Shown piece by piece: positions 36,126-54,111 of a stretch of DNA of 64,000 bases. The notes beneath the pieces are model-generated. The model did not search any database, was not told the DNA's origin, and saw nothing but the letters and a program-made list of their open reading frames with translations. The DNA comes from an uncultured Clostridia bacterium. GTDB lineage: Bacteria > Bacillota > Clostridia > TANB77 > CAG-508. Every line of letters starts with the position of its first letter. The first letter of the stretch is position 1. The translations under genes were made by a program, and so were the position numbers. The DNA is taken from positions 47,645-111,644 of the forward strand of contig CALXAB010000001.1 of the NCBI GenBank assembly GCA_944386175.1, in the 5' to 3' direction.

Positions 36126-36168
36126 AGAGAATCTTTATGTTTGTATTATATACTAAAATTTTATATTT

Positions 36169-36890: not shown

Positions 36891-36891
36891 A

Positions 36892-38670
36892 TCATATATT
36901 AATTACTTTTTGTTGACTCATATATAATTTATAATAATTTCCTTTTATGCTCATTAATTCTTCATGAGTTCCATATTCTACTATTTCTTTATCTTTAATA
37001 AAAAATATTCTGTCACTATCCACTATTGTAGATAATCTATGAGCAATCGTTATTACAGTTTTATTTTTAACCATTTCTTTTGTTAGATTTTGTAGCATTT
37101 TTTCTGTTTTTACATCAATCTTACTTGTTGCTTCATCGAAGATTAATATTTTAGGGTTATTAATAATTGTTCTTATATAGCATAATACCTGTTTTTCTCC
37201 ATCTGATAGATTTTTTCCATTACTACTTAATTTTGTATTGTATCCATCTTCTAAACTCATTATCCAATTATGTACATTCAATCTTTTACATATTTCTATT
37301 ACTTTATCATCAGTTATATTTTCATTTCCATATTTTAAATTTTTCATAATGCTTGTACTAAATAAGTAATTTTCTTGTTGCATAATAGCTATCTGTTTTC
37401 TAAGTCTATTTAGTTTTATATTTCTAACATCTTCTCCATCAATAAAAATATTTCCTGAATCTATATCATAAAATCTTCCAATTAGATTTGTAATAGTGGT
37501 TTTTCCACTTCCTGTACTACCTACAATAGCTACTTTTTCTTGCGGTTTTACTTTAAAAGATATATTATTTAAAACTTTATTATTTTCTATATAAGAAAAA
37601 CTAACATTTTTAAATTCTATTTCACCTTTTATTTTGATGTCTTTAGCATCTATTTTATCTTTTATATCTATTTTTTCATCCATTGTTTCAAATATTCTCT
37701 CTAAATATGTAATTGAATTAATAAAATCATCTAATGTTTTAAATAAGTCTTCTATAGGTTGCCAAAAGTTAGATGAATAACTTCCCATAGCAACAATAGT
37801 TCCAACTGATGTAGTTGGATATAAAAACATCGCTCCTACAAAATATATTGTTGCAGTTACCCAATGTGACATTGTTTGTACACTACACCATCCAATATTG
37901 CCAAATTTTATTTGTTTGCAACTTGCATCTTTCCAACTTCTACTTAAATCATTAAATATATCTTCATTCTTTTCTTCTCTATTAAATGCTTGGGTTATTT
38001 GCATTCCTTTTAATGTTTCTAATAGATATGCATTAGTATTAGAATTTTTATTATTAATTAGTAATTTATTTTTTCTCTTTATCTTAGCTGTTGAAGCAAA
38101 TATAAAAATAAGTATTACTATTCCAACTAATGCGATTAATGTTAGTTTCACACTTGTTAAAAACATAAATATCAGAATAATAAGCATATTAAATATGTTT
38201 AAAAATGTTGTTACTAATTTATCTGTAATTAGAGTAGAAACATCTTCTGCATATTCTGTTAGTCTAACTAGTATTTTTCCATGAGGTCTTGTGTCGTAAT
38301 AATTAACTGATAAATACTGAATATGTGAAAACAAATCATTTTTTATATCTTCTACAATATTTTGATTTACTTTAGCCAACATTTTTTTATACACTTTAGT
38401 TACAATAATAGACAATAATACTAAAAATAATGCTAATAATATTATGATAAACAATTTTTCATAATCGCTATTAGGAATAACATCATCGATTACATATTGT
38501 AGTATTTTAGTGATAAATAAAGTAGCTATAATAGATATACAATTTAAAATAAATATAATAATCAATTTTGATTTATATTTTTTTATGTATGTTAAACCTC
38601 TTTTATAATTAGAAAGACTGAATGAAGTATTTTTTTCATCTTGGTCATATTTGTTTACACTCATATACAT
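36892..38670 (-). CDS. ABC transporter, fused permease/ATP-binding protein (type I exporter)
   Basis: Six-TM N-terminal domain. Walker A GSTGSGKTT. Signature LSDGEKQ. Confidence 0.85.
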   Translation of the reverse strand: MYMSVNKYDQDEKNTSFSLSNYKRGLTYIKKYKSKLIIIFILNCISIIATLFITKILQYVIDDVIPNSDYEKLFIIILLALFLVLLSIIVTKVYKKMLAKVNQNIVEDIKNDLFSHIQYLSVNYYDTRPHGKILVRLTEYAEDVSTLITDKLVTTFLNIFNMLIILIFMFLTSVKLTLIALVGIVILIFIFASTAKIKRKNKLLINNKNSNTNAYLLETLKGMQITQAFNREEKNEDIFNDLSRSWKDASCKQIKFGNIGWCSVQTMSHWVTATIYFVGAMFLYPTTSVGTIVAMGSYSSNFWQPIEDLFKTLDDFINSITYLERIFETMDEKIDIKDKIDAKDIKIKGEIEFKNVSFSYIENNKVLNNISFKVKPQEKVAIVGSTGSGKTTITNLIGRFYDIDSGNIFIDGEDVRNIKLNRLRKQIAIMQQENYLFSTSIMKNLKYGNENITDDKVIEICKRLNVHNWIMSLEDGYNTKLSSNGKNLSDGEKQVLCYIRTIINNPKILIFDEATSKIDVKTEKMLQNLTKEMVKNKTVITIAHRLSTIVDSDRIFFIKDKEIVEYGTHEELMSIKGNYYKLYMSQQKVINI

Positions 38671-40379
38671 TCCTCCATATTATTTACTTGAATATCATAA
38701 ATTTCTTTATATTCTCCATTCTTATTCAATAATTCTTCATGTGAACCACTCTCTATGATTTCTCCGTTTTTCATTACAAATATGACATCAGCATTTTTTA
38801 CAGAAAGAATTTTTTGTGCAATTATAATTTTTGTACATCTATATTTCAAATTATTAATATTTTCAGTAACTTCTAATTCAGTTTCAAAATCTAGTGCGGA
38901 AGTTATATCATCTAATATTAATATACTAGGTCTCTTAGCTAATGCTCTTGCCAAAGATAAACGCTGTTTTTCACCTCCTGATAAACTCACTCCATTTTCT
39001 CCTATTATTGTATTAATATCCTCTGGTAAATCAAATACATAATCAGCTTTAGCCAATTTTAAACATTTTTTTATTTCTTCTTCTTTTAAATCTTCATTTC
39101 CAAAACTAACATTATTGGAAATAGTATCAGAAAACAGAAAAGGAGTTTGAGAAACATAACCGATATTTTTTCTTAATGATTTTAATGTATATGTATTTAT
39201 TAAATTATCGTCTATTTCTATCTTTCCACTTGAACATTCTATCAGTCTTAACATCAGTTTTCCAATAGTAGATTTTCCACTCCCTATTTCTCCAATAAAT
39301 GCATAAGTCTTATTGGGCTTTAAATCTAAATTAATATTTTTTATAACTTTCCTATTATTAAGTTTGACATTAACCCCTTTAAAAATAATATTTTCCCAAT
39401 TATTTAATATTAAACTTCCTTTATCTTTTATTTTAGGTTCAGTTTCTAATAATTTTCTTACTTTTGATACAGATACTCTAAATTGTTGCCATTCATTTAT
39501 AAAACCACTTAATTCTATAAACGGTTTTCTTATAGTGCCTATAAAAGAATTAATAATAATAAATTGTCCCATTGTCGTGTAACCTTTTATAACAAATATT
39601 CCCCCAAATAAAGTTAATAATATTTGCATACAATATGATAAAAATGTGACTATATTGTCATAAGAGATATTCATATTTTGTATTTCTAAATTCTTATTTT
39701 TCAAATTTCTATTCTTTACTTTAAAGTTATCTATTTCTTTTTGTTCTGTTGCAAATGTTTTGATTAATCTATTTCCTTCTATATTTTCTTGTATATAATT
39801 ATTTAGGTTTGACAAACTTTCTCTTTGATCTTTATATAATTCCTTTGATTTTTTTATATGTTTTTTAGATATAACTGCAATTATAGGAGTAGGTATTAAA
39901 ATAATTAGTGTTAAAATTGGGTTTATATATAGGCAGTAAATTGTAGTTAAAATACTAGTAGTTAACATGCTTATAGATTGTTTTATCACAAAACACATAT
40001 TATGATGAATAATGCTATTATCTGTTGTTAAAAGCGTGCTTATTTCTCCCAAAGTTTTTTCTTCGTAAAAATCTTGATTTAATTCATTCAATTTTTTATA
40101 ACATTCAACTTTTAACTTATGTGCTAAATTAAATCTAACATGATCCATTATTAATATTCCAAAATAAGTTATCAGCCTACCTATAAAATACATACTAATA
40201 GATATAATAAAAAGGTATGGAATAATAGAAAAATTACTCTCATATATACCTTTATCTATTATTTCTCCTAATAGTATAACTGGTAATATTTTAGAAATTC
40301 CTCCACCTAATATTATCATTAAATTTGAAATCCAATATCTAAAATTATATTCTTTAATAAATTTTAATACCCATCTCAT
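38661..40379 (-). CDS. ABC transporter, fused permease/ATP-binding protein (partner half-transporter)
   Basis: GEIGSGKST, LSGGEKQR and ILILDD motifs. Overlaps the downstream partner gene. Confidence 0.85.
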   Translation of the reverse strand: MRWVLKFIKEYNFRYWISNLMIILGGGISKILPVILLGEIIDKGIYESNFSIIPYLFIISISMYFIGRLITYFGILIMDHVRFNLAHKLKVECYKKLNELNQDFYEEKTLGEISTLLTTDNSIIHHNMCFVIKQSISMLTTSILTTIYCLYINPILTLIILIPTPIIAVISKKHIKKSKELYKDQRESLSNLNNYIQENIEGNRLIKTFATEQKEIDNFKVKNRNLKNKNLEIQNMNISYDNIVTFLSYCMQILLTLFGGIFVIKGYTTMGQFIIINSFIGTIRKPFIELSGFINEWQQFRVSVSKVRKLLETEPKIKDKGSLILNNWENIIFKGVNVKLNNRKVIKNINLDLKPNKTYAFIGEIGSGKSTIGKLMLRLIECSSGKIEIDDNLINTYTLKSLRKNIGYVSQTPFLFSDTISNNVSFGNEDLKEEEIKKCLKLAKADYVFDLPEDINTIIGENGVSLSGGEKQRLSLARALAKRPSILILDDITSALDFETELEVTENINNLKYRCTKIIIAQKILSVKNADVIFVMKNGEIIESGSHEELLNKNGEYKEIYDIQVNNMEECI

Positions 40380-40960
40380 TTATATTTTTTCTCCAATATT
40401 TATTATATTTTTATATTACTTTTCATATTCTATCATAATTTTATTTCTTTCTCAATAAAATTATAAAGTTTCAAAATATATTTATCCTTACATTTGCTTA
40501 ATTATGAAAAAATCCGCAATAGAAATAATGTCAAGAGCGAGTGATAATGAGTTTATTTACTCTTGATATTATTTTTATTGCAGATTAAATTTACCCTGCA
40601 AATGTATGAGGCAAAAAATAAGTATCAGTACATATCTACCGACACTTAAATTTATAAAGATTCTCTATTACTTATTTCATAAATTCTTTCTAGCAATTGA
40701 AATAACTGATAATTTTACATATCTACAATTAAACACAACCTATATATGTCATGCTTATCATAGACACAATCTCAAATTCCCTAGTATTTCAAACACTTCT
40801 ATCAATTTTCTAAAATTTAATTTATGTGTTTCCACTTACCACATCTGCAACTACTTTAACTTTCACATCTGAATTTTGATGTTTTTCTCTTCCATATCTT
40901 CCTTTTTTCTCGAAAGTTATAATCTCTGAAAACATATCAAATTCAAGTATTACCTGTCCT
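40380..40960. other. Conserved non-coding E region downstream of recombinase 2. It holds a 26-bp imperfect inverted repeat with a 23-nt spacer (40512-40585) and about 400 bp that are about 90% identical to 58140-58560
   Basis: Direct comparison of the two stretches in the window. The only ORF here (40606-40872, plus strand) is not conserved in the second copy. Confidence 0.7.
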
Positions 40961-40963
40961 GTT

Positions 40964-42679
40964 TTAGTTGTAGCACTGCCACACATTCCACATGTGTTGG
41001 TCATCTCTGGTTGCAGTAAGTTTTAAATGTTGTTTATCTCCTGTTGCAGTAAAATTGTCTTTACAATTTATTTCTGTTCCGTTTTTACAAATAAACCTTA
41101 TTGTATATGGATTTATTGTACCATTTTCTAATGTTTCCCCAATTATTACTTTCTCTATTATACATTCAAAAATATCTTTATCAAAATTTTTCATTATTTC
41201 CATATCTTTAAATAAACCTTTAAACTTGTTTAATCTATGTTTAATACTTTCATTTCTGTTTGTGTCTTTTAGTAGGTTTTGTATTTTCTGTTCTACTTTT
41301 AATAGTTCTATGTTTAGCTCATCATATTTTAAAGTATATTGTTCTTTATTTATTCTGCCTTCTAAGTTTAGTTCTAATAGATTATTAAGTTTCTTGTTTA
41401 TTTTCTCTTTGTCTTTTTCTAGCTTATTTACTACTGTTTCTGTAGTATTTTCTTTTAAGACATTTTCTATTTTTTCTAAAAAATCTTCTACTACTTTTTT
41501 ATTGTTGTTACAGAGTATTCTATATCCTTGTACAAAACAATCTTCTAGTATTTCTTCTGGTATTGCTTTACAGTATGGGCATTCTTCTTTTCCATGTTTT
41601 GCTCTTTTGATACATTGCCATACTGCTTTTTCATATTTTCTTTTTGAGTTCCAGTTTCTTCTTGTAAGTAAGCTACCACAAAATCCACAATATAATTTAC
41701 TACTAAAAGCATATTTCTTACTATAGTTATTATTTCTTCTTCCTGTTTCTCTTGTTCCTACTCGTTTTATTCTTATTTCTTGTACTCTATCAAATAACTC
41801 TTTACTAATAATTGGCTCATGATGTTCTTTTATATAATGCTTTTCTGCTTCTCCTAAATTGCTTAATCTTTTATGTGATATTGGATCTATTGTAAATGTT
41901 TTTCCCATTAGCACATCTCCAATATATTTTTCATTTTTTAGTATTCCTCTTATTGTTGATTCGTTCCAATTATCATTACCTTTTGGGGATTTAATGCCTT
42001 TTGCTTTTAGTTCTTTTGCTATTGTACTTGAACCTATTCCGTCTACATATCTTTCAAATATATATTTTATAACTTCTGCTTGTTCCTCATTTATAGTTAT
42101 CTGTTTTGTTATTAAATCATAGTTATAACCGTAACAACCATTATAGCCAATTAACTCTCCCCTGTCTTTCTTCATTTTTAGTCCAAGCAATACATGTGAA
42201 GATATGTTCTCACTTTCTTGTTGTGCCATAGCACTTAATACTGTTAGTAGCATTTCTCCTGTTCCTGATAGAGTATTTAGATTTTCTTCTTCAAATAAAA
42301 CTGCAATGTTCTTTTCTTTTAGCATTCTTACATATTTTAAAGTATCTAATGTGTTTCTAGCAAATCTTGATATGGATTTTGTTAAAATCATATCAAATTT
42401 TCCAGACATTCCATCTGTTATCATTTTCATAAAGTCTGTTCTTTTAAAATCTAATGTGCCACTTATAGATTCATCTGCATATATTCCTGCAAATTGCCAT
42501 TCAGATTTGCTATTGATTTTTTCATCATAATACTTTAATTGTGATTGGTAACTATTTAATTGTTCTTTATTTCCTGTACTAACTCTACAATATGCACATA
42601 CTCTTAATCTTTCTTTGATTGTTGTACCTGTTACTCTGTTAATTCTTCCGTTTGTTTTCTCTATGACTTGAATTTCCAT
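40964..42679 (-). CDS. Large serine recombinase (resolvase/invertase-type catalytic domain plus recombinase and zinc-ribbon domains); C-terminus frameshifted
   Basis: RVCAYCRVSTGNKEQ is the catalytic Ser region. 571 aa. The last about 58 residues are encoded in another frame (ORF 40822-41004, similar to the C-terminus of the recombinase at 48681-50573). The shift is near 41018-41029. Confidence 0.8.
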   Translation of the reverse strand: MEIQVIEKTNGRINRVTGTTIKERLRVCAYCRVSTGNKEQLNSYQSQLKYYDEKINSKSEWQFAGIYADESISGTLDFKRTDFMKMITDGMSGKFDMILTKSISRFARNTLDTLKYVRMLKEKNIAVLFEEENLNTLSGTGEMLLTVLSAMAQQESENISSHVLLGLKMKKDRGELIGYNGCYGYNYDLITKQITINEEQAEVIKYIFERYVDGIGSSTIAKELKAKGIKSPKGNDNWNESTIRGILKNEKYIGDVLMGKTFTIDPISHKRLSNLGEAEKHYIKEHHEPIISKELFDRVQEIRIKRVGTRETGRRNNNYSKKYAFSSKLYCGFCGSLLTRRNWNSKRKYEKAVWQCIKRAKHGKEECPYCKAIPEEILEDCFVQGYRILCNNNKKVVEDFLEKIENVLKENTTETVVNKLEKDKEKINKKLNNLLELNLEGRINKEQYTLKYDELNIELLKVEQKIQNLLKDTNRNESIKHRLNKFKGLFKDMEIMKNFDKDIFECIIEKVIIGETLENGTINPYTIRFICKNGTEINCKDNFTATGDKQHLKLTATRDDQHMWNVWQCYN

Positions 42680-42881
42680 CTTTCCTCCGTTCCGCCTAGA
42701 GATAAAACTTAATAATTTTATTTTATAGAAAAGTGCATTTTAATGCATCTTTTCTATAAAACAAGGTTAATTTACCTATATTTGCCCGAGCTTTAGCTCG
42801 TGGCATTTGAGCCTAGAAATCTTTGATTTCGTTAAGGCTCAATTATCTTATATCATTTTTTAGATAAAAAGTAAATTGTTC

Positions 42882-43100
42882 TTACAAAAGTTTATAATCT
42901 TTTAAGATTTTTCTTTTTATTTCAATATATTCTGAATCTAGTATTAAGTTTTCTCTAAACAAATTATTTAAAAACAATAATTCCATGCTACAGTCTAGCA
43001 TATTATTATCTTTTAGTTGTTTAGAGTTATCTACTTCTATTTTATAATTATGTAGCATGAAATTGCTCCTTTTCTTTAAATTTGAAAAGAAAAAGAACAA
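42882..43100 (-). CDS. SHOCT-like small protein (divergent paralog)
   Basis: ENLILDSEYIEIKRKILKDY motif. Same position relative to the recombinase as 36169-36354. The start is possibly the internal Met (MLHNYK, about 43058). Confidence 0.45.
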   Translation of the reverse strand: MFFFFSNLKKRSNFMLHNYKIEVDNSKQLKDNNMLDCSMELLFLNNLFRENLILDSEYIEIKRKILKDYKLL

Positions 43101-43229
43101 AGAAACTAGAATCTTTCTAATCCCTTTGCTCTTTCTCTTTCATACTACCATTATATTATCGTGTTTTTATATAGTCAATTCCATTTTTATTCCCTCTTTT
43201 CTATTTTTGATATAATTCTAGTATCTAAT

Positions 43230-43620
43230 TTTATAAGTACACTAAGTAAACTAAAAATTGTATAATTTTAAATTGCAGTTCACTTGGTGTACTAGAAAAA
43301 TATAACAAAAGTTCACTAAGTGTATTTGTAAATTTTGTTTTATTTTCACATTCACTTAGTGAACTAAATTCAAAAATATTATTCAATATCAAGTACACTT
43401 GGTGAACTTTTTCCCAAAATAAGTGAATTTTTTTAATTTTTTAATTCACCATTTTTAATTTTGAACGAAGAATAGCGGGTTTGAGCCAGTTCACCGAGTG
43501 AATTTTTACATCATATTTGCATAAAATTTTTGTTTTTTTATTAACTCTTGAAGGCTTGTCCTTCAATATGTATAGGCATTTTGTTAAGAATGCTATCCTG
43601 CCCTCATTTTCAATGAGGTA
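43230..43620. repeat. Repeat locus C: seven palindromes (one widely spaced) plus a T element with a variant second hairpin
   Basis: Palindromes at 43237-51, 43278-92, 43311-25, 43350-64, 43393-407 and 43489-503, plus GTGAAT-N14-ATTCAC at 43424-49. T element at about 43519-43600. Confidence 0.85.
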
Positions 43621-43788
43621 TTTTGCTCTTAAAATGTACTTATTCTACTTAATTAAATATACTTATCCTTAAATCCTCTTAATCGAAAAACAATGTGCTT
43701 TTAAAAATAAGTCAAGGTTGTGCGATAGCACATTTATTTAAACCTTGACTTGTTTTTATAAAGCACATTATACTTTTCTAAAAGGATT

Positions 43789-45240
43789 TTAACTATTTAT
43801 AAAAAATTGAATTATTGCAAATATTCCCATATCTGAAATTGTTTTTATTGCATCTACATTAGCAATAACTTTATAAGGGTGATGAATTACTAAATCTAAA
43901 TAGTTTTTCATTCCTTCATTATTAAAACATGTCTCCCATGCTCTTGAAATAGTATCGTCATCAATAAGATTTTGTTTATCTATTGATATTTTATTTATAA
44001 TCTTCTCTAATCTCAAGTCCAAATTATTATTTGCAGATTTCCATTTTTCCCATTTTCCTTTGTTTATTAAAAAATAGATGCTTGATTGTTCTAATAATGA
44101 GCGGATTAAAAAGCAATATGATATTGGGTAATTTTTATATAAATTTCCAAATGATAAATGCTGAATTTCATAGCATAGATTTTTAATCCCTTTAGCTCTA
44201 TCATTACTATATTTTAGTTTGCTACAATTAATATTTTTAAATAAAATACTATTGTCTTTTCTTGTTAATCTGATTTTATTAAATGCTATACTTTCATTTA
44301 TTTTATTTTTTACTATTTCACTTTCATTGGCATTATTATGTTTTTCTTCTCTACCATTAGAAAATATCTTCATTTGTTCATTTTTATTTTCTAAATTTTC
44401 ATTTATTTTATCTTTGCTGTCAAACCTTTCACTAACATTATTTTCTATATTGCCATACAAATATTTTTCTATATTAGCATTATTTTTTATTGTGTTACTT
44501 GTAATCCTACCACTTACAATATCTTGAACAATTCGTAATACTTTCTTGTCTAATTCATTTATTGAAGACAATGGCATTAAAACATTGTTATTAAAAGAAA
44601 TATTCAGATATTCTTTACCAACTTTTGAAGAAACAATCTTTTCAAACTTATTTACTGAAAAATTATTGTCAACTCCATCAAATGCTTTTTTACAAAATCC
44701 TTGTAATTGTGAAAATATATTTTTTACTCCCATTTTATCTTCAAATCTTTTTATTGAAGCTGTATCCCATTTTAAAGCTCCTGTATCAGTTGTATGTACA
44801 TTTCTTATATATCCAGCACAATCTTCAAATGAAGTGGCCACATAACAAGGAATTTGAAAATATTCTTCTCCTTGAATTCCTGCACTCATTGCATATATGC
44901 TTCTTATTTGTGTATATGAAAAGTATTTAAAAGATTCTACCAATTTAGGATTTTTTAAGATTTTCATTGCTGTTAATCTTCTATTACCATCCCATGCCAC
45001 AAATTTTTCTTTTTTCTCATCATAAGTGACTGTAACTATTGATTGTGGATACCAACCATTTGTGTAAATATCACTAATTAACTTATGCATTGCCTTCGCT
45101 TCTTTAGAATTTCTCACCAATTGTTGCATTATAAAAAGTTCATCCGCTATCATAATTTGTGTATGTCTTGGATTCTCTGGATTTACTAATATTTTTTCTA
45201 TGTCTATTAGTTGATGTTCTCTCATATATAATTCCCCCAT
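43789..45240 (-). CDS. ParB/sulfiredoxin-fold (ParB N-terminal domain) protein with a long uncharacterised C-terminal region
   Basis: VNPENPRH and VAWDGNRRLTAMK resemble ParB boxes I and II (GxxRxxA). The likely start is the ATG at 45225, preceded by TGGGGGAAT. Confidence 0.6.
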   Translation of the reverse strand: MGELYMREHQLIDIEKILVNPENPRHTQIMIADELFIMQQLVRNSKEAKAMHKLISDIYTNGWYPQSIVTVTYDEKKEKFVAWDGNRRLTAMKILKNPKLVESFKYFSYTQIRSIYAMSAGIQGEEYFQIPCYVATSFEDCAGYIRNVHTTDTGALKWDTASIKRFEDKMGVKNIFSQLQGFCKKAFDGVDNNFSVNKFEKIVSSKVGKEYLNISFNNNVLMPLSSINELDKKVLRIVQDIVSGRITSNTIKNNANIEKYLYGNIENNVSERFDSKDKINENLENKNEQMKIFSNGREEKHNNANESEIVKNKINESIAFNKIRLTRKDNSILFKNINCSKLKYSNDRAKGIKNLCYEIQHLSFGNLYKNYPISYCFLIRSLLEQSSIYFLINKGKWEKWKSANNNLDLRLEKIINKISIDKQNLIDDDTISRAWETCFNNEGMKNYLDLVIHHPYKVIANVDAIKTISDMGIFAIIQFFINS

Positions 45241-45294
45241 TTTTTACCTTATAAAGTCTTTCGTAAATCCCTCATCATTCTTAAGTATATTATT

Positions 45295-46812
45295 CTATTT
45301 TTTTGCAATATATTTTTGATTTTTAGTATTTGGTTTATCTGGTATAGTCATTTGCAATTTTCCACTATCTAATAATGGTCTCATGTATTTTAAATAGAAA
45401 TTTCTTCTGTCTTTTAATCCTAAATATGCCATTATTTCTTTTGTTGTTTTTGGTTCTCTACAAAATTCTAATATTTTATCTTGATGGGTATCTTGGTGGA
45501 TATCTTGGTGGGTTGTTGGTCGGTCTTTTATCTCATTTTCAAATCTATCATGTATAAATATTGTTGTAATAAAATAATCTCTTGTTTCATTTGTTTCAAA
45601 CTCTGGTTCTTTTGAGCCATTATTTTTCAATGCTCTTTTTATTTTTGGAATACCTGTATTTCTACCTTCTGTTAATTTTAATTCTTTTAAAAACTCTCCA
45701 ATTCTACGATTTCTATATTTTCTTGCTATCATATTTTTATCTTCAATTGATTTTTCGCTTATTGAACGGTCTGGTCCTGGATAACTTACAATATGAATTC
45801 TATCTTCCATTATTCTTACTTCTACTGGTTCCCTTACATCATATCCTCTATGATAAACTGCATTTACTAATGCTTCTTCTATTGCTTGATATGGATAATT
45901 AAAAAATCTTACAGCCTCCGCTTGTCCATCTATCTTTAAAATTTTTTCCATAATAACAGTATTTTTAATATATGTTAAAGCACTTTTTATCATAGTATCA
46001 ATAGGTCCTTTAAATATTTGCTCTGTCATATCATCACCTTCTGGACCGTTTCTTAAATCTACTACTTCTATTTGTGAATATGGAAAGAATTTTTGTGGCT
46101 CATCATTAAAAAACATTAACCCTACATTTAAAGGTTTCATATATTCTGGTGTTCCATCTACTATTCTCATACTTTTACATAAATCTATAAAACTCATTGT
46201 TTCGGATTCTTTTAATAGTTCACTCTTTATCTCATATAAGTAATTTTGAATTAGTGGTAGTTTTAAATCTTGAATTTGTGCCTCATGATTCATTCTATCA
46301 TCGAATGGTATTACTCTTGCCATATCATATAATTCTTTTTGCTCTACTTCTGTAGCTTTTACTGTACTGGACATTTTTCTAATATAATATGAATATCCTT
46401 TTGAAAAATCTTTATCTAGTGTTGTTGGACATTTGTATGGTCTATTCTGACCACCAAAACACCATACTACTAGTATATTTTTACCTTTATATTGAGCAAC
46501 ATCTACAATTGGTGTATAGGCTGGCTGTATCATTTTACATTTTGTTAGCAATTCTTTTTGAATTTTATCTATTTCAGATAATTGTAGCCCTTCAAAATCT
46601 TTCTTAGGTCTACCATTTGCTTCTTCAACACCTATTAAAATATATCCTCCACCCCAGTTATCTATATCATTTGCAAAAGCACAAATTGTATGTAATATTG
46701 GTTCTGGATTCCAGTTTCTCTTTAATTCTAATCTTGCATTTTCTACAATGTTTTCATTTAGTATATTTTCTATACTTGTAGGTAATCTCATCTTCTCACC
46801 TTTCTTTTTCAA
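45295..46812 (-). CDS. Schlafen/AlbA_2-domain protein with HATPase_c_4-like and C-terminal winged-helix regions (often annotated as 'RecG-like putative ATP-dependent DNA helicase / transcriptional regulator')
   Basis: The N-terminus NARLELKRNWNPEPILHTICAFANDIDNWGGGYILIGVEE is typical of the AlbA_2/divergent AAA-4 domain. ALVNAVYHRGYDV lies in the middle. The likely start is at 46791, preceded by AAAGGTGAG. Confidence 0.6.
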   Translation of the reverse strand: MKKKGEKMRLPTSIENILNENIVENARLELKRNWNPEPILHTICAFANDIDNWGGGYILIGVEEANGRPKKDFEGLQLSEIDKIQKELLTKCKMIQPAYTPIVDVAQYKGKNILVVWCFGGQNRPYKCPTTLDKDFSKGYSYYIRKMSSTVKATEVEQKELYDMARVIPFDDRMNHEAQIQDLKLPLIQNYLYEIKSELLKESETMSFIDLCKSMRIVDGTPEYMKPLNVGLMFFNDEPQKFFPYSQIEVVDLRNGPEGDDMTEQIFKGPIDTMIKSALTYIKNTVIMEKILKIDGQAEAVRFFNYPYQAIEEALVNAVYHRGYDVREPVEVRIMEDRIHIVSYPGPDRSISEKSIEDKNMIARKYRNRRIGEFLKELKLTEGRNTGIPKIKRALKNNGSKEPEFETNETRDYFITTIFIHDRFENEIKDRPTTHQDIHQDTHQDKILEFCREPKTTKEIMAYLGLKDRRNFYLKYMRPLLDSGKLQMTIPDKPNTKNQKYIAKK

Positions 46813-46842
46813 ATGTCCGTTTTTTCGGACTTATAAAATTTT

Positions 46843-47259
46843 TTATTTCATATAATCTCTAATTTTAAATAATAACTCATCATCTAATATCTCTGTTGAG
46901 GCAAAATTATTTAAAGTATTATTATCTTCCCAATCTATATCAAATAAATTTATCACTTTATCATATCTTGGGAAAGCATGATAATGAACAAATGGATCAT
47001 GCATCATCATAATCATATAATTAAACTTTATTGCTCCAAACCTGTCTCTACATAGTTCTTCATACCATTTTATTACTTTTGGAAATTCAGCACCTTCATC
47101 TTGTAACATTCCACTTACATTTTGTGTTTCTCTTTTCAATAAAATAACTACATCTCCTAATGTTGTTTGTTTTTGCCTAACACAAACAATCCAATACTTA
47201 AACTCTTTAATACAAAGTTCCTCTGGTCTAAATTTTTTCATAAATTCTAAATTGTCCAT
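46843..47259 (-). CDS. Hypothetical protein, possibly HIT-like
   Basis: The FVHYHAF motif gives only a weak resemblance to a HIT histidine triad. Confidence 0.3.
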   Translation of the reverse strand: MDNLEFMKKFRPEELCIKEFKYWIVCVRQKQTTLGDVVILLKRETQNVSGMLQDEGAEFPKVIKWYEELCRDRFGAIKFNYMIMMMHDPFVHYHAFPRYDKVINLFDIDWEDNNTLNNFASTEILDDELLFKIRDYMK

Positions 47260-47282
47260 TGATAAGACCTCCTCTTACATTT

Positions 47283-47922
47283 TTATTTTTTAAACATATC
47301 ATTTAAATTATGTGATATTAATTTTAAATTATCTATATTTTCCCCTTCAATAACATAAGGCGTACAATGTTGTATTTGCAATTCAAATACTCTTTCTCTT
47401 GGTTCAATCTTAAACATATTTAAAAATAAGCACCTTATTGCATGATAATGTGAGAATATTCCTATTGTTATATCATCATTAAAATCTAACGAATCAAGAA
47501 ATCTTTTACATCTTATACTAACATCAGTATAGTTTTCTCCTTTTGGTGCTTTTTGTACGAAATCTGTTCTAAATTTATTAAATTTTTCATCTGTAATATA
47601 TTCATTATATTCATTAGAAGCTAATAAATCCTTCTTTTCCTTCAAATATTCCTAAACATCTTTCTCTTAAATCTTTACTTAAATTTAGTTCATATCCTGG
47701 TTTAGCTAATTTTGCTGTTTGTATTGCTCTCATTAAATCTGAAGAATAAACTTTTTTAATACTTTTAATAATATCATTTTTTGCTAAAATACTTGCTTGA
47801 TTCTTTCCTTATTCTGTTAAACTCGTCAATTCATTATCTAAAGTTCCTGTGTATAAAGCTGTTCCTTCATCATTTATCACGTTTGCCATTGTTTGTCCAT
47901 GTCTAATTATAACTATTCTCAT
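47283..47922 (-). pseudogene. Histidine phosphatase (phosphoglycerate-mutase-like) family gene, frameshifted
   Basis: Translation from the ATG at 47920-22 gives MRIVIIRHGQTMANV... (RHG catalytic motif) and stops after 36 codons. The remainder is in another frame (ORF 47283-47645). The start overlaps the HD gene's stop (TAATG). Confidence 0.55.
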
Positions 47923-48506
47923 TAATTGTTACCTTCCTTTTTATTCTTTATTGTTTCAATATATTCTTTAACATATGCGTTCATATCTCTATCAAATAGT
48001 TCTTTTGAATATTCTAATCTTAATAGTTCTTCTCTTAAGATTGGCAAATATACTTCTATAATTTCATCTAACGCCTCTGGTTCTTCTTCAATACATCTTT
48101 TCCATCTATTTTTTCCGATATAAGCAATTTTGTCTGCATCTCTTACAATTTTTCCTTCAACTGTTGGAGGAATACATTTTCTCTTATGATTTACTACTGC
48201 TGAATAACATTGTTCTATTATTTCATTACTATAACTTAACTTTTCCATTTCTTCTTTTAGAATTCTTCCGCTTTCTTCTTCATGTCCTTTATCTGTAACA
48301 GACCTTCCAACATCATGCCAATATGCAGCTATAATACATATTTCTTTATTAGCTGGTATCTCTTCTAATAATTCTTTTACATAGTTTACGACATCAATAG
48401 TATGACCTATAAAATGTAGAGGATCATTTTCACATACTTTCATTTTTTCTATAGCTATATCAATTAATTTTTTATTTTTATTATATATTTCTTCGTAAAT
48501 ATCCAT
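47922..48506 (-). CDS. HD-domain phosphohydrolase
   Basis: IAAYWHDVGR...DADKIAYIG carries an HD motif. Confidence 0.7.
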   Translation of the reverse strand: MDIYEEIYNKNKKLIDIAIEKMKVCENDPLHFIGHTIDVVNYVKELLEEIPANKEICIIAAYWHDVGRSVTDKGHEEESGRILKEEMEKLSYSNEIIEQCYSAVVNHKRKCIPPTVEGKIVRDADKIAYIGKNRWKRCIEEEPEALDEIIEVYLPILREELLRLEYSKELFDRDMNAYVKEYIETIKNKKEGNN

Positions 48507-48680
48507 TCTATCTAAATTCTCCCTATCTCTATTCTTTTATATTTTGACCATATTTTACCATAAAACAATAAAAAAATAAAGCATATAACAAATTAAATTA
48601 TTACATACTTTACCTTTCAAGTTTTATCTCCAAACATTTTTATTTTTCGTTGACAAATCGTTGACATTATCAACAAGAAA

Positions 48681-50573
48681 TTATACTACTCCGCACACCA
48701 TGTCAACTTCTATCGTTACTTTAATTTTATGATTTTCTGTTCTTTTAACCTTATTTTTGCCTTTTCTATCAAAACTAATAAAATCTTCAAAAGCAGTAAA
48801 TTGGGCTATTGTATCGAATCTTTCAGACATAGCACCGAGCAACACTCCACATGGCTCACACCCAGTCTGTAGATAGTTTTGGCTTACCTCGTATGATGAC
48901 TGTTGCAAACTACCTTGATTTTTATCTTTTTGACATTTGATTTCGTTTCCAGATTTTAGGATAAATGTTATTACTCTTGGATTTACATCTCCATTTTGTT
49001 CTTTTTCTCCTATTATAACTTTTTCTATCATTAATTCAAAAACATCTTTATCAAATGTTGGCATTATTTCATCATCTTTAAATAGACTTTTAAACTTGTT
49101 TAATCCTTGATTTAAACTAATTGAATCTTCTAACTCTAGTTGTAAATGTTCTTGCTCTTTTTCTATTTTGTTTATCTTGTTTTGTAATTTTGCCTTTTTA
49201 TCTTTTAATGTTTCAAGTGTTATTGTTCCATTCAAGTTTAAATCAATTAACTTGTCTATCTTTTCTTTTAAAGTTTGTTTTTCTTCTTCTAATTTTTTAA
49301 TAGAACTTTCATTACTTTCTTCTTGTATGATTTCTTCCATTTGTTTTAAGAATGTTTTGATTAGTTTTTTGTTATTATTACATAAAAGTTTATAACTTTC
49401 TGTAAATGCTTCTTCTATAATGTTTTCTTTCATTGCTTTACAATATGGGCAATTTTCTTTTCCATGTTTTACAAATTCCATACAATGCCATACCGTAATA
49501 CTATTTTTTGTTCCAGAGTGCCAGTTTCTTCTTGTTAATAAACTTCCACAAAAACCACAATATATTCTACTACTAAAAGGATATTTTCTGCTAAAGTTTC
49601 CTTTTCTTCTTCCAGAGCCTCGTACTCCTCCTCGCTTTTGTAATATTTCTTGTGCTTGATTAAACATTCTTTCTGAAATAATTGGTTCATGATGTTCTTG
49701 TATGTAATACTGATTTTCTTCTCCCATATTGACTACTCTTCTATGTGAGATTGGATCTGTTGTATATGTTTTTCCTTGTAAGACATCTCCTTTGTATTTT
49801 TCGTTTTTCAAAATACCTCTTATAGTTGAGTCATGCCATTGTTTCTTTCCTGTTGGTGTTTTATATTTCATAGCAGTTAGTTCTTTTGCAATTGTTGTGC
49901 AACCTACTCCTTGACAGTATCTTTCAAAGATATATCTTACTATTTCTGCTTCTTGATAATTTACTGATATTTTCTTTGTTTCTTTATCATATACATATCC
50001 TAAACATCCATTATATCCAATTAATTCTCCTCTTTTTTGTTTCATCTGTAATCCTAGTTTTACATGAGAAGATATATTTTCGCTCTCCTGCTGTGCCATT
50101 GCACTCATTACTGTTAGCATTACTTCGCCAGATAATTCTAAAGTATTGATGTTTTCTTCTTCAAAATAAATAGTGATTCCTTTTTCCTTTAATAATCTTA
50201 CATACTTTAAAGTATCTACTGTATTTCTTCCAAATCTTGATATTGATTTTGTAATTATCATGTCAAATTTGTTTTCTGTTGCATCTTGCATCATTCTCAT
50301 AAAGTTATCTCTTTTATAGTCAAGTGTTCCTGTTATCCCTTCATCTGCATAAATCCCTACATAAGTCCAATCACTTCTTGATTTTATTTTTTCTTCATAA
50401 TATTTTAGCTGAGAATTATAACTATTTATTTGTTCTTCTTTTTCTGTACTAACTCTTGCATAGGCACATACTCTTAAATTGCCTTTTATAACTTCTCCTG
50501 TTGTTCTATTAATTCTTCCTTTTTTCTTCTCTATTACTTGTACTTTCAAAATTAACCTCTCTTTCTCAAGCAT
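48681..50573 (-). CDS. Large serine recombinase (full length, 630 aa by the ORF track; a TTG start at 50549 gives 622 aa)
   Basis: LRVCAYARVSTEKEEQ is the catalytic Ser region. Large recombinase domain with a Cys-rich region. About 70% identical to the recombinase at 40964-42679 and identical to the chimeric ORF at 35451-36125 over the first 46 codons. Confidence 0.85.
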   Translation of the reverse strand: MLEKERLILKVQVIEKKKGRINRTTGEVIKGNLRVCAYARVSTEKEEQINSYNSQLKYYEEKIKSRSDWTYVGIYADEGITGTLDYKRDNFMRMMQDATENKFDMIITKSISRFGRNTVDTLKYVRLLKEKGITIYFEEENINTLELSGEVMLTVMSAMAQQESENISSHVKLGLQMKQKRGELIGYNGCLGYVYDKETKKISVNYQEAEIVRYIFERYCQGVGCTTIAKELTAMKYKTPTGKKQWHDSTIRGILKNEKYKGDVLQGKTYTTDPISHRRVVNMGEENQYYIQEHHEPIISERMFNQAQEILQKRGGVRGSGRRKGNFSRKYPFSSRIYCGFCGSLLTRRNWHSGTKNSITVWHCMEFVKHGKENCPYCKAMKENIIEEAFTESYKLLCNNNKKLIKTFLKQMEEIIQEESNESSIKKLEEEKQTLKEKIDKLIDLNLNGTITLETLKDKKAKLQNKINKIEKEQEHLQLELEDSISLNQGLNKFKSLFKDDEIMPTFDKDVFELMIEKVIIGEKEQNGDVNPRVITFILKSGNEIKCQKDKNQGSLQQSSYEVSQNYLQTGCEPCGVLLGAMSERFDTIAQFTAFEDFISFDRKGKNKVKRTENHKIKVTIEVDMVCGVV

Positions 50574-50616
50574 AGAGAATCTTTATGTTTGTATTATATA
50601 TTAAAATCTTATATTT

Positions 50617-50802
50617 TTAAATACCTATATGAGTTAAATCATATTCTTTTAAAATATTTTGTTTTAGTTCTAAATATCTTTCCTCTTTAATTAGTCCTGC
50701 ATTATATGTTTTATTTAGAATTGCTATTTTAATGCTACAATTAAAAATATTTTCATTTAGTTTTACATTTTTCGTATTATCAAATTTTACTTCGTACAAC
50801 AT
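50617..50802 (-). CDS. SHOCT-like small protein (61 aa)
   Basis: Near-identical to 36169-36354. The 105-aa ORF-track model (to 50934) runs through a terminator hairpin and is probably over-extended. Confidence 0.5.
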   Translation of the reverse strand: MLYEVKFDNTKNVKLNENIFNCSIKIAILNKTYNAGLIKEERYLELKQNILKEYDLTHIGI

Positions 50803-50832
50803 AAAAATTCTCCCTTGCTTAAATAAAATTTC

Positions 50833-50880
50833 AAAAAAGAGCAATAGAAAAAGCCAGTCGGCTAGCTTCGACTGACTTCT
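50833..50880 (-). terminator. Putative rho-independent terminator (stem CAGTCG/CGACTG with a GCTAGCTT loop, then a U-rich tract on the minus strand)
   Basis: Read directly at 50855-50874. The homologous position at 36.39-36.43 kb is degenerate. Confidence 0.35.
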
Positions 50881-50979
50881 TTGTCTGACATTTTTTGATA
50901 ATACGATTATATTATGATGTTCTATAAAGTTCAATTCCCGTTTTTTTCCCTTTTTTCTATTTTAATTGATAAAGTGTTG

Positions 50980-51350
50980 ATTTTTTAGTTAGTACACTAA
51001 GTGAACTTGTGTAAAAATTTTTTTAATTATTTTTTACTTTATTATTTTTGAGTTCACTCGGTGTACTTAGTTTTTTATTATATCAATTTTTAGTACACTT
51101 AGTGAACTAATTATAAATTATTTCATAAAATTTAGTACACTTGGTGAACTTTTTCTTAAAAATTACTTATCTTTCGTTCATTTAGTGAACTTTCACACTC
51201 TAAAAGAGATTTTTTAGTCATTCATTCGGTGAATTTTTGCATCAAATTTGCTTAAAATTTTTGTTCTTTTATTAACTCTTGAAAGCTTGACCTTCAATGT
51301 GTATATGCGTTGCGTGATGCACGCTATCCTGCCTTTAGTGTTCACTTTAT
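50980..51350. repeat. Repeat locus D: six palindromes plus the T element (about 95% identical to locus B)
   Basis: Palindromes at 50992-51006, 51052-66, 51093-107, 51135-49, 51176-90 and 51220-34. T element at about 51251-51345 with stem 51279-85/51291-97. Confidence 0.85.
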
Positions 51351-51355
51351 ATCCT

Positions 51356-53209
51356 TTAATTAGTATTAGATTCTGATGTAGTTTTATTTACAACACCCAA
51401 GTTCTTAATACTATCTTGTAAACTTTCATCTGGAATAAAGTTTCTACAATTTTCTAATTTATAAAATTCCCCTAATTTATCTATATCTTTATATAAGAAA
51501 TAAAAATAGTTTTTTAATGCATTTTCTGTTGTTTCTAATCTAGGTCTTAATGAGTATGCTCTTTTCTTCTTATAGAAATAGTTTTCATTAAATAATTTAT
51601 ATAAATTATTTAGTTCATCACTATCTAATGTTATTTTGTGAAATCTCGTTTCTTTGAAAATATAATTTATTTTATCAATGTCTATATTTAAATCATCAAC
51701 ATATTCTCTAATGTTATTCTTGCTTATTATAGTTATTATAGATAATGTAATACTCATAATTATATAATCCATAAATTCTTTTGATAAATTCATTGTCCTA
51801 AATATTTTTATTGATCTAATATCATTGTTTTCAATCATTTTTAAAAACATTATAATGATTGGTTCACCCTTTATAAGATATGGTATAAATATTTCTTCTT
51901 CATGTATATTTTTTCTTTGCAGAAAATCATTAATACTTCTATCTGGAAATTTTTCCCTATGTTCCATTAATCTAATATTATCGTATAATTCTTCTAGTAC
52001 TCTGTACTTTTCATTTTTAGTTAAATTCTTATTTTCAATAACACATGTATATACAGATTCTAAATATCTATTACTAGTAAACATATATATAGAATCATAT
52101 TTATATAATCTACAATAGCTAAAATCTATAACATTTTCATATAGAAAAATTAAATACATATCTAATTTAATAATTCTCCATACAAGATTTATATATTCTT
52201 TTTCTTGACTTTCAGTTTGAATATATTTTATTTTATCTATTAAATTTGCAATATTTTGCATTTTATAATCATCATGAACAGGCACAAATTCATAATAAGC
52301 AAACATTGTATAAAGTTTACAATATATATTTGCAGCCTCTATATGTTTATTATATAAAATCAAATGCGAAACTATTTCATGTATAGCACTAATCAAATCA
52401 CTTCTAAAAATCATTTCTGTATAATATTCTTGAAGAATTTTTTTGTTATTAAATAAAGTTAAATCTATAAGATTCATTATGTTGTGAATATTATAATTAT
52501 AATCATTATCATTTTTTTGTATTAATACTAATGTTTGATTCTTTAAGTCTGTGATATCTTTGCACCCATGGCTATTTAGAGGAATCGCCTTTTTTATATG
52601 CTTCTTTTGTTTCTCTAAATACATACATAGTAAACTGTTTCCAAACCAATTTTTATGAGTGTAAAACCAAATCATTTTAATACACATATAAAATATAACT
52701 ACAAGAGAAAGCAAAAAATTTATTAATATTAGTATTTGACTACTGCCTTTTAGGCATTGTATAATATTTACAAATAATAGGAGAACTAAAATTATAAAAA
52801 TTTTTAGCAATGATAAAAAACTATTGTTAGGGAAAATAACATTAATATGTTTTTTTCCCAATATATAACTTTCAGACAACCCAGATAATAAAGATATTAC
52901 TGAAATTATTATCAATGTATTACTAATTTGAGCTACTAATATATCATTTGAATCAATGTTAAATTCTTTATTCAAGTCTAATATATTTTCAATTTTGTAA
53001 TCATTAATAGCATAAAAAATTACAAACATACTAAATATAACTATACTAAACATAAAAATAATCATTAAAAAATTCATAATTTTTTGTTTAACTACAAAAT
53101 ATTTTTTATTATCATATATTTTATACCATTTTAAAAATTCTTTTATTTTATAATTTTTATTTAAAATAAATCTTCTTATTTTTTTTAATTTACCATTAGA
53201 ATCTTCCAT
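51356..53209 (-). CDS. Hypothetical 617-aa protein: N-terminal multi-TM region plus a large soluble domain
   Basis: Several hydrophobic helices in the first about 200 aa. No recognisable motifs. Located downstream of the AbiE pair. Confidence 0.45.
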   Translation of the reverse strand: MEDSNGKLKKIRRFILNKNYKIKEFLKWYKIYDNKKYFVVKQKIMNFLMIIFMFSIVIFSMFVIFYAINDYKIENILDLNKEFNIDSNDILVAQISNTLIIISVISLLSGLSESYILGKKHINVIFPNNSFLSLLKIFIILVLLLFVNIIQCLKGSSQILILINFLLSLVVIFYMCIKMIWFYTHKNWFGNSLLCMYLEKQKKHIKKAIPLNSHGCKDITDLKNQTLVLIQKNDNDYNYNIHNIMNLIDLTLFNNKKILQEYYTEMIFRSDLISAIHEIVSHLILYNKHIEAANIYCKLYTMFAYYEFVPVHDDYKMQNIANLIDKIKYIQTESQEKEYINLVWRIIKLDMYLIFLYENVIDFSYCRLYKYDSIYMFTSNRYLESVYTCVIENKNLTKNEKYRVLEELYDNIRLMEHREKFPDRSINDFLQRKNIHEEEIFIPYLIKGEPIIIMFLKMIENNDIRSIKIFRTMNLSKEFMDYIIMSITLSIITIISKNNIREYVDDLNIDIDKINYIFKETRFHKITLDSDELNNLYKLFNENYFYKKKRAYSLRPRLETTENALKNYFYFLYKDIDKLGEFYKLENCRNFIPDESLQDSIKNLGVVNKTTSESNTN

Positions 53210-53265
53210 ATTTTGCTCCCATTTTCATATATTCATTTAATTATTCTATGTATGTAGTTATTAGA

Positions 53266-54111
53266 TTATTTTTTTAATTCATTCTTTATTTCTTCTAATA
53301 CTCCCATCGTATCTTCATAATTAATATCTTCTGCATAACTAAATTTAGATTGATAATTCTTCCAATGCTCTTTCAGAACATCACTTTCTTTTATAACTTC
53401 CATTATCTCATTTATATTATTTAATTTATCCATTGAACCTCTATATTCAAATTTCTTCAATATAGCTTGTCCTAATAATTCTTTATTAAAATTTTGTTGT
53501 TGAGTAGTCCATAATATATAAATATCATAAAAATCTCTCGCTCTTGTAGTATCTATATTTCTTGATATAATTGTTTCAAATTTATCAGCTATTACTGTTT
53601 CCATATTATATGCTAATATTTCTATTGAACGATTTTCAAACATTAAATCGAACTTATAATTTACTTCTTTTGGAACAATTACATCTCCTGTTGTTATATC
53701 TAATTTCATTGGTACAACTAACTTATCAAATTTAGCATCTAAAGCTACTCTGTATCCTCCATATTCATCTTCTTGTCTTATTTCTTTTATACTTCTAAAT
53801 TCAAATGCTACTCCATCATCTAAATCTATATTAAAAATTTCATTTAAGATATTTTCAAGATTATCCTTTTCTAAATCAAATCCTTTTATCGTTGCATCCA
53901 TATCAAGAGTATTTCTCATGTCTATTCCAACTATTGCTGTTATTAACATTCCTCCTTTTAATACAAATTTATATTTGTATTTTGATACCGAAATTCTTTC
54001 CAATAGTCTTTCTAGCATATAGTTTTGTAAAATAATGTTTTCATTCACATCTACTTTATCTGACATATTCTTTATCCATGCTTTTAATTGTGCTCTATTT
54101 TTTGCTATCAC
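53266..54111 (-). CDS. abiEii: AbiEii/AbiGii-family nucleotidyltransferase toxin (intact)
   Basis: KGGMLITAIVGIDMRNTLDMD is the NTase motif. 281 aa. A 4-nt overlap (ATGA) with the upstream antitoxin gene. Confidence 0.75.
   Translation of the reverse strand: MIAKNRAQLKAWIKNMSDKVDVNENIILQNYMLERLLERISVSKYKYKFVLKGGMLITAIVGIDMRNTLDMDATIKGFDLEKDNLENILNEIFNIDLDDGVAFEFRSIKEIRQEDEYGGYRVALDAKFDKLVVPMKLDITTGDVIVPKEVNYKFDLMFENRSIEILAYNMETVIADKFETIISRNIDTTRARDFYDIYILWTTQQQNFNKELLGQAILKKFEYRGSMDKLNNINEIMEVIKESDVLKEHWKNYQSKFSYAEDINYEDTMGVLEEIKNELKK

Follow-up and report, generated by a model that had tools for sequence, protein, structure and literature searches.

Do five genes packed in one orientation between two serine recombinase genes form a single defence system, or have they been inherited separately? 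The question is raised by a 4.7-kb stretch (43789-48506) of a 64,000-nucleotide (nt) contig segment from an uncultured Clostridia bacterium, which we analysed as a whole and refer to as the window. The stretch holds genes for an HD phosphohydrolase, a histidine phosphatase, a HIT-fold protein, a Schlafen (SLFN)/AlbA_2-type protein with a GHKL ATPase domain, and a ParB-like protein with a HEPN-like C-terminal domain (ParB-HEPN below). An earlier note on this DNA had proposed that all five act together in a single nucleotide-based system of defence or signalling that a serine-recombinase element carries as cargo. Our best reading is that the stretch lies in a hypervariable string of co-directional genes on a low-GC gut Clostridia chromosome into which serine recombinase genes have been inserted. 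We give somewhat better than even chances to its being made up of three or more units with separate inheritance, a mosaic in which two defence-type genes act independently, and not one system.

The existence and layout of the genes agree with the first description. Five tightly packed, co-directional open reading frames (ORFs) are present, all on the minus strand (Table 1), which carries almost all coding sequence of the window (G+C about 25%). The ATG of the phosphatase overlaps the stop codon of the HD gene as TAATG, a junction the earlier note had also pointed out, and the remaining spacers measure 23 nt (phosphatase/HIT), 30 nt (HIT/SLFN) and 54 nt (SLFN/ParB). All five family calls of the earlier note held in profile searches and structure matching. 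A consensus scan detected no minus-strand terminator-like site within 43789-48506, and a promoter scan stayed at chance level (57 sites against 55.9 expected); co-transcription of the five genes is possible. Searching the whole window against Rfam returned no family, and megablast of 36000-54000 against phage and plasmid collections returned no match.

Table 1. Features of the window and phosphatase lesions in related loci (L numbers; aa, amino acids)
Feature	Coordinates	Strand	Description
HD phosphohydrolase gene	47922-48506	-	194 aa, YedJ-like; first of the HD-phosphatase-HIT trio
Histidine phosphatase (branch 1) pseudogene	47283-47922	-	From sequence reading and the repaired frame against PF00300; CAA to TAA at codon 38 (CAA in relatives) and 5-nt deletion in a GAAAA repeat
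HIT-fold protein gene	46843-47259	-	138 aa; from profile and AF2/Foldseek
'Schlatpase'-HTH gene, stand-alone	45295-46812	-	505 aa; SLFN/AlbA_2, GHKL ATPase and C-terminal winged helix
Orphan PD-Lambda-5_A-type ParB/Srx-HEPN-like gene	43789-45240	-	483 aa; from PADLOC/PHROG
Upstream large serine recombinase	48681-50573	-	630 aa; Resolvase, Recombinase and Zn_ribbon_recom
Upstream small ORF	50617-50934	-	105 aa
Downstream large serine recombinase	40964-42679	-	571 aa; 58% identical to the 630-aa recombinase
Downstream small ORF	42882-43100	-	72 aa
Near-palindromic 15-mer array	43237-43503	.	Six copies of GTTCACYAAGTGWAC, most spaced by about 40 nt; in the junction immediately downstream of ParB-HEPN
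Further GTTCACYAAGTGWAC 15-mer arrays	50992-51190, 36542-36730, 20109-20164		2-6 copies in each array
Phosphatase lesion, L011	L011 7333-7977		GAA to TAA at codon 31
Phosphatase lesion, L102-104	L102 2628-3273; L104 776-1418		1-nt insertion near codon 22
Phosphatase lesion, L101	L101 7585-8035		Truncated after about 30 codons, beside an rve-family transposase gene

The evidence that carries the mosaic reading comes from gene neighbourhoods. Searches anchored on four of the five genes covered about 100 related loci, and at none of them, other than the window, do all five genes occur together. The HD-phosphatase-HIT trio recurs among close relatives only (HD 91-95% identical). In L011-13 it stands in the order serine recombinase, HD (95% identical at the amino-acid level), phosphatase (98%), HIT (93%), followed by a 133-aa gene of the dCMP/cytidine-deaminase family, a small ORF (87%) and a recombinase (95%); PADLOC has no match for the L011 deaminase. 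DNA homology between the window and L011 extends from 50548 to 46841 and again from 43789 to 42838. It breaks off precisely at the HIT stop and starts again precisely at the ParB stop, so that a 3051-bp SLFN and ParB block in the window corresponds to a 430-bp deaminase gene in L011. A different combination is found in L102-103, where a GNAT gene precedes HD (91%), the phosphatase pseudogene, HIT and SLFN; the ORFs after SLFN are small and unrelated, and ParB is missing. In L018 the ParB gene occurs alone (88% identical) behind an NTPase_I-T gene, its homology running from 45294 to 43788 and starting at the base after the SLFN stop, and a separate HD gene lies downstream.

More distant homologues of the single genes point the same way. 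HD homologues at 79-87% identity occupy unrelated neighbourhoods. One such context is peptidase C1, HD and a 566-aa unknown protein; another, in L092-96, reads TRAM methyltransferase, AbiEi, AbiEii, HD, a 136-aa protein, NUDIX, Era and RecO, with no recombinase between AbiE and HD. HIT homologues (77-86%) adjoin DUF5680, 2-phosphosulfolactate phosphatase or ThyX genes, or stand among acetyltransferase (GNAT), NUDIX and NT5C genes. Downstream of SLFN homologues we found, besides ParB-HEPN, genes for a GHKL/HSDR_N protein, a TPR protein, an epimerase, DUF6847 and a YaaC-like protein. Partners thus change gene by gene, and the idea of one five-gene system does not survive this comparison.

The replacements seen from strain to strain (SLFN with ParB against the deaminase, ParB alone, HD alone) are bordered by stop codons or gene ends, at window positions 46841/43789 and 45294 relative to L011, L018 and L056. 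Genes of the co-directional string behave in this respect like single-gene cassettes; their spacers of 23-54 nt are too short for attC-like sites.

The phosphatase gene is broken, as the earlier note had recognised, although a frameshift is not its sole lesion. The frame begins MRIVIIRHGQT..., runs to an in-frame TAA at 47811-47809 and shifts near 47640, and the stop codon together with the 5-nt deletion prevents any single ORF from spanning the full His_Phos_1 domain. When repaired, it matches His_Phos_1 (PF00300, E 5e-27) with a recognisable RHG motif; PADLOC has no match for the protein. In a DNA alignment of six haplotypes (the window and five relatives) no intact copy was present, and the gene has been inactivated in four independent ways (Table 1). 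The HD gene is intact in every one of these phosphatase-dead haplotypes, and the HIT gene is intact wherever it is present. Programmed recoding at the in-frame stop was rejected as an explanation, since relatives bear other lesions at other sites. Because lesions differ among the haplotypes while the flanking HD and HIT genes are intact, the alignment suggests that the phosphatase is dispensable or counter-selected across the lineage. The suspicion that the operon was decaying in this strain was therefore right as to the death of the phosphatase and too narrow as to its extent.

The two surviving enzymes of the trio could be placed by profile and structure. The HD protein matches PF01966 (E 7e-13, residues 33-128), the NCBIfam HDIG model TIGR00277 (3.5e-8) and, in the Protein Data Bank (PDB), 2pq7 (1.2e-6) and YedJ (3gw7). 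Its metal-binding H..HD..D residues can be read in the sequence, the HD dipeptide lying within AAYWHDVGR; PADLOC returned weak partial Cas3-HD matches only. For the 138-aa protein, nothing in Pfam, NCBIfam, PHROG or PADLOC reached threshold. A profile of 30 homologues retrieved the HIT proteins 2oik (1.4e-5) and 3imi (2e-4) from the PDB, and the AlphaFold2 (AF2) model, with a predicted local distance difference test score (pLDDT) of 90.3, had as its top PDB matches in Foldseek exclusively the Ap4A phosphorylase Rv2613c, FHIT and other HIT proteins (E 9e-7 and weaker, probability 1.00). The family has an invariant core, FVHYHAFPRY, in which the invariant H92 and H94 correspond to the second and third histidines of the triad, and the profile alignment sets vhyhafPRy opposite VHWHVIPRF of 2oik. 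The assignment to the HIT alpha+beta fold, predicted from this profile and model, holds: fold (template modelling score about 0.6-0.7) and HxH-x-x-PR core are shared with FHIT, Rv2613c, 2oik and 3imi, whereas the first triad histidine is replaced by Phe or Tyr in the family and by Phe (FVHYHAF) in the window protein.

The 505-aa protein combines SLFN_AlbA_2 (PF04326, 2.7e-14, residues 24-153), HATPase_c_4 (PF13749, 3e-13, residues 329-410) and a C-terminal Fic-like_C winged helix (2.9e-14). It also matches the SLFN-GHKL part of a PADLOC prokaryotic Argonaute (pAgo) model (positions 55-429, 1e-22), phrog_12156 (9e-37) and PDB entries 2kyy and 3lmm; no NCBIfam model matches it. The pair of AlbA_2 and GHKL domains has been named the 'Schlatpase' supradomain, is present in 58.6% of 103,533 prokaryotic SLFN proteins, and mostly occurs in small proteins with nothing else or with a helix-turn-helix (HTH) domain that is short (bioRxiv 10.64898/2026.05.29.728809). 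The window protein has this same majority layout of AlbA_2, PF13749 GHKL and short HTH, defined around the SLFN-pAgo RzAgo. Unlike RzAgo and Cash, it has no Argonaute, CARF/Csx15 or NACHT sensor module, and no conserved partner gene was found among the SLFN-anchored loci. The catalytic residues of Cash (CbCash) are E17, D22 and K24 (PMC13462974); the E24-x4-E29-x-K31 that we read in the window protein is spaced alike. Decayed copies were also seen. Many relatives (L070-L076 and L080-L083) have only the C-terminal ~170 residues of the SLFN-GHKL-HTH protein (from about residue 333; the match is at ~6001-6573 in the longer loci) or, as in L073, an internally deleted copy; this suggests frequent gene decay, or perhaps a recurrent deletion end-point.

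The 483-aa ParB-HEPN protein can be assigned to a known defence family. It matches the PADLOC PD-Lambda-5_A model PDLC03998 almost end to end (E 8e-43, residues 6-434 against 1-417 of 466 model positions), along with 19 more PD-Lambda-5_A models, and phrog_9592 (2e-33). Neither Pfam nor NCBIfam matches it, a PDB sequence search with the family profile gave nothing meaningful, and an exact-protein look-up gave no record. Family alignments and an AF2 model give its layout as an N-terminal ParB/Srx domain, a middle domain, a disordered linker (~264-329) and a C-terminal HEPN-like helical domain, the same arrangement of ParB/Srx and HEPN-like domains as in PD-Lambda-5 component A. The family alignment contains the invariant motifs NPENPRH and WDGNRRxTA, and the residues GNRR, K93, H149, W158, G351, R380, LLE and H453 are invariant in the close family and in canonical PD-Lambda-5_A alike. 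The gene is full length at most loci. Its superfamily comprises 2119 representatives at 50% identity with E<=1e-3, and 49 with E<=1e-30. Tblastn against phages and plasmids retrieved distant N-terminal matches only (22-26% identity), confirming the PD-Lambda-5_A label, and a scan of viral contigs with the ParB-HEPN profile gave two weak partial matches.

Fusions of ParB and HEPN domains, as well as operons of ParB, methylase and HEPN genes, have been catalogued before, and the combination was predicted to link restriction of DNA to a suicide response that targets RNA (Anantharaman et al. 2013, PMC3710099). The window protein likewise joins a ParB-fold domain to a HEPN-type helical domain; it differs from these fusions in that the canonical HEPN Rx4-6H is not evident, its HEPN-like domain having instead an invariant R380-x4-Q385 (R380-LLE-Q385) and a distant H453. 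A paper on anti-plasmid HEPN proteins was considered and dropped, as it has no bearing on this architecture.

What the window does not have is the second PD-Lambda-5 component. PD-lambda-5 is a two-gene system that includes a methyltransferase, and its cloning needed an mrr-deleted host (Vassallo et al. 2022, PMC9519451). Distant homologues of the 483-aa protein (25-27% identity, L039-L043) each adjoin a 272-298-aa gene for PD-Lambda-5_B (PDLC04018, 5e-123), a D12-class adenine methylase (PF02086). With two canonical B proteins as tblastn queries (E<=0.01), matches were confined to these five loci, and no such Dam-like methylase was found in the 64-kb window or beside homologues of at least 36% identity. 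The window gene is flanked by SLFN upstream and a non-coding junction downstream. Because component B was looked for and not found, we make no two-gene PD-Lambda-5 call and class the protein as an orphan of PD-Lambda-5_A type.

In four other contexts (L026 11565-, L027 3910-5541, L033 3527-5119, L056 3554-) a serine recombinase of another subfamily (33-43% identical to those of the window) follows a ParB-HEPN gene at a distance of 90-170 nt. Given this shared placement, the gene tends toward the recombinase-proximal edge of such elements.

The existence of the genes, their family and fold assignments, the missing methylase, the mosaic inheritance and the phosphatase lesions are all observed; how the units act, including their biochemical activities and any role in defence, is predicted. 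The HD, phosphatase and HIT genes form a small operon with translational coupling, made up of nucleotide or phospho-ester hydrolase-type enzymes and limited to close relatives. Given these families and neighbourhoods rich in NUDIX, NTPase_I-T, YfbR-like HD and Ppx-GppA genes, the operon most likely serves nucleotide or dinucleoside-polyphosphate (ApnA-type) hydrolase housekeeping, with the phosphatase already lost. The Schlatpase-HTH protein would most likely be a stand-alone abortive-infection RNase gated, by analogy, by ATP-dependent oligomerisation; this would assemble the SLFN nuclease site, which would then cut tRNA or other RNA and halt the growth of the infected cell. The orphan ParB-HEPN protein most likely works by itself, as a defence protein or abortive effector. 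Sensing or restriction would fall to the ParB/Srx domain, through binding or cutting of nucleic acid or binding of NTP, and the HEPN-like domain would provide the toxic output as an RNase-type abortive effector. With no methyltransferase partner, self and non-self would not be set by cognate methylation, and the protein would therefore need another trigger, for example modified phage DNA or a phage protein. The description of the stretch as defence-type cargo would then apply to two of its five genes, which belong to defence-associated families, the other three being of nucleotide-hydrolase type.

Several observations weigh against fully separate inheritance of these units, and all concern SLFN and ParB-HEPN. 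Their order recurs outside the window (L056, L019/L001-4, L025, L079 and fragments in L088). L056 has the whole 3-kb block at 83% nt identity in another context, followed by a recombinase 39% identical to that of the window; in L001-4 and L019 an SLFN remnant (residues 393-504) is still joined to ParB; and in L025, L079 and L088 the ParB allele that follows SLFN is only 49% identical to ours. The first 1290 nt of SLFN in L025 are 92% identical to the window, and the SLFN 3′-end, the spacer and ParB are replaced. With this breakpoint inside the SLFN 3′-end, the winged-HTH segment and the ParB allele have changed together (the L025 C-terminus matches HTH_24, not Fic-like_C). Such recurrent adjacency hints at some functional or regulatory linkage; possible causes are a functional link, a promoter that lies within the SLFN 3′-end, and common ancestry. 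The comparison also has its limits, as some neighbour genes come from our own ORF caller and the counts, drawn from related metagenome-assembled genomes and metagenome contigs of uncultured gut Clostridia, are descriptive and do not represent independent events. On those counts, 15 ParB-anchored loci had a full-length gene and 1.6 kb or more of upstream sequence, and SLFN is adjacent in two of them (L025 and, as a remnant, L019); 10 SLFN-anchored loci had 400 aa or more aligned and 1.5 kb or more of downstream sequence, and ParB-HEPN is adjacent in one of these (L056). The co-occurrence that the earlier note had proposed to look for is thus the exception: the two genes sometimes travel together as a 3-kb block, and each is more often alone.

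These observations could be taken further, to a true two-gene defence cassette of SLFN-winged-HTH and ParB-HEPN, a methylase-free PD-Lambda-5 variant in which the Schlatpase replaces the Dam-like methylase as partner or controller and to which the trio is unrelated. The gene-exact exchange of the pair against L011, its recurrence as a whole block beside a different recombinase in L056, the remnant still joined to ParB and the divergent ParB allele behind SLFN in L025 and L079, with the breakpoint inside the SLFN 3′-end, all speak for it. We regard it as distinctly unlikely, with the partner missing in 13 of 15 ParB-anchored and 9 of 10 SLFN-anchored loci, ParB standing directly behind another gene in L018 and SLFN preceding unrelated small ORFs in L102-103; moreover, the recurrences may all stem from one ancestral arrangement in closely related strains. 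Just as doubtful is the broader proposal that PD-Lambda-5_A-type ParB-HEPN proteins of one gut-Clostridia clade have come to do without the methyltransferase, whether as a single-gene defence or as a cassette in which Schlatpase-winged-HTH replaces methylation control. Were such a methylase-less cassette real, the co-replacement of the SLFN winged-HTH segment and the ParB allele in L025 would reflect a physical interaction of the proteins. The extension of the cassette to all five genes, as first proposed, can appeal to tight co-directional packing without an internal terminator-like site, to serine recombinases on both flanks with an AbiE pair nearby, and to the joint presence of HD, phosphatase, HIT and SLFN in L102-103. 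The neighbourhood data largely refute it, and we hold it to be very improbable: the full set is confined to the window, the phosphatase is dead in every haplotype seen, homologues of HD, HIT, SLFN and ParB each occur in unrelated neighbourhoods, HD directly follows AbiE without a recombinase in L092-96, and PADLOC is blank for HIT and phosphatase and gives weak partial Cas3-HD matches for HD.

Two further alternatives concern what the genes do. The absence of a methylase from the window and from beside close relatives would suit a type IV-like, modification-dependent restriction factor of GmrSD kind, which attacks modified phage DNA without a cognate methylase and whose ParB/DUF262-type N-terminal domain uses NTP. 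The DGNRR motif of ParB-HEPN does resemble the DGQQR motif of DUF262, and a Pfam search at E<=5 with 31 family members gave GmrSD_N as the only match, in four of the 31 (best E 0.011). Those matches are far below threshold, however, the C-terminal domain looks HEPN-like and not like HNH/DUF1524, and canonical PD-Lambda-5_A has all the same invariant residues yet pairs with a methylase; we consider this explanation improbable. That none of the five genes has a defence role, SLFN-HTH being a DNA-binding regulator and ParB-HEPN the remnant of a lost restriction-modification module among accessory or housekeeping genes, is unlikely in our judgement. Relatives do have long co-directional strings of unrelated small enzymes (GNAT, NUDIX, NT5C, glyoxalase, APH), SLFN copies are often cut down to the C-terminal 170 aa, and viral contigs yielded just the two weak matches. 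Against this, ParB-HEPN keeps every canonical PD-Lambda-5_A invariant residue over a mostly full-length gene, the catalytic-type E/E/K triad and the GHKL domain of SLFN appear intact, and AbiE, HEPN-MNT and PemK modules abound in the neighbourhood. The mosaic of separately inherited units, with SLFN and ParB-HEPN as independent defence-type genes, is the reading we prefer.

A small homologous ORF and a 0.4-0.7-kb junction come before each of the two recombinases that flank the stretch. In NCBIfam the closest models for these recombinases are CcrC, CcrB and XisF, none of which reaches its cut-off (133 bits against 900). Like the recombinases of staphylococcal cassette chromosome (SCC)-type and other large-serine-recombinase islands (CcrA/B/C, XisF), they consist of Resolvase, Recombinase and Zn-ribbon domains, and repeated junctions bound successive segments; they differ from them in scoring far under the equivalog cut-offs. 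The near-palindromic 15-mer GTTCACYAAGTGWAC has 31 strand-matches in the window against 0.2 expected by chance. Three of its arrays lie upstream of a small ORF and a serine recombinase, of which only a truncated 5′-end is present at 36.5 kb, and the array at 20.1 kb has no recombinase. The arrays could be operator sites or recombination sites. The notion of a mobile module with this stretch as its cargo is borne out as to the recombinases on both sides and doubtful as to cargo status, with HD following AbiE without a recombinase in L092-96.

The AbiE pair next door, also noted earlier, is present (AbiEi/AbiEii, 53266-54701). Its counterpart in L092-96 is 81-86% identical and abuts HD, from which we conclude that in the window a 617-aa ORF and a recombinase unit have been inserted between AbiE and HD. 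This ORF (51356-53209), between the AbiE pair and the recombinase junction, has a hydrophobic N-terminal part and no match in Pfam, NCBIfam, PHROGs or PADLOC; relatives where AbiE abuts HD lack it. The 64-kb window holds three AbiEi/AbiEii-type pairs in all, the others being at 12743-14138 and 22014-23128 (24-41% identical to the L092 pair).

Further traces of recombinases are scattered around. Within window positions 35451-36484 a third junction and small ORF precede a recombinase start of 49 codons, which is 96% identical to the 630-aa gene and fused in frame to the 3′ half of purD (GARS_A/GARS_C; 35451-36125). The 5′ half of purD was not found in the window, and the fusion may be either a deletion scar or a recombination product. 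ORFs at 36892-40379, tried as further recombinases, proved to be two ABC exporter genes. Among relatives, remnants of the recombinase C-terminus (residues ~573-630) occur at L045 5194-5316, at L052 2325-2498 and 7981-8106, and in L053, L054 and L070, and L063 327-692 is an internally deleted recombinase whose N-terminal 66 aa are joined to the C-terminal 74 aa. As these remnants are scattered through the gene strings of relatives, they indicate repeated insertion and decay of recombinase units.

The earlier note had recognised no named system in this combination of genes. Its parts can be placed all the same, the ParB-like gene as a homologue of PD-Lambda-5_A and the SLFN gene as the commonest prokaryotic Schlafen architecture; what lies here is a set of genes whose families are known, one gene having an unusual configuration without a methylase; it is no new five-gene system. 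With this analysis a tempting false positive falls away: because genes in these genomes are swapped one at a time with gene-exact borders, tight co-directional packing beside recombinase and Abi genes does not make a system. For the methylase-less PD-Lambda-5_A clade one may ask what keeps a ParB-HEPN effector harmless when cognate methylation is absent, and the Schlatpase-HTH genes, intact and truncated and without a sensor partner, offer a natural series. Both are relevant to the activation of HEPN and Schlafen effectors that stand alone.

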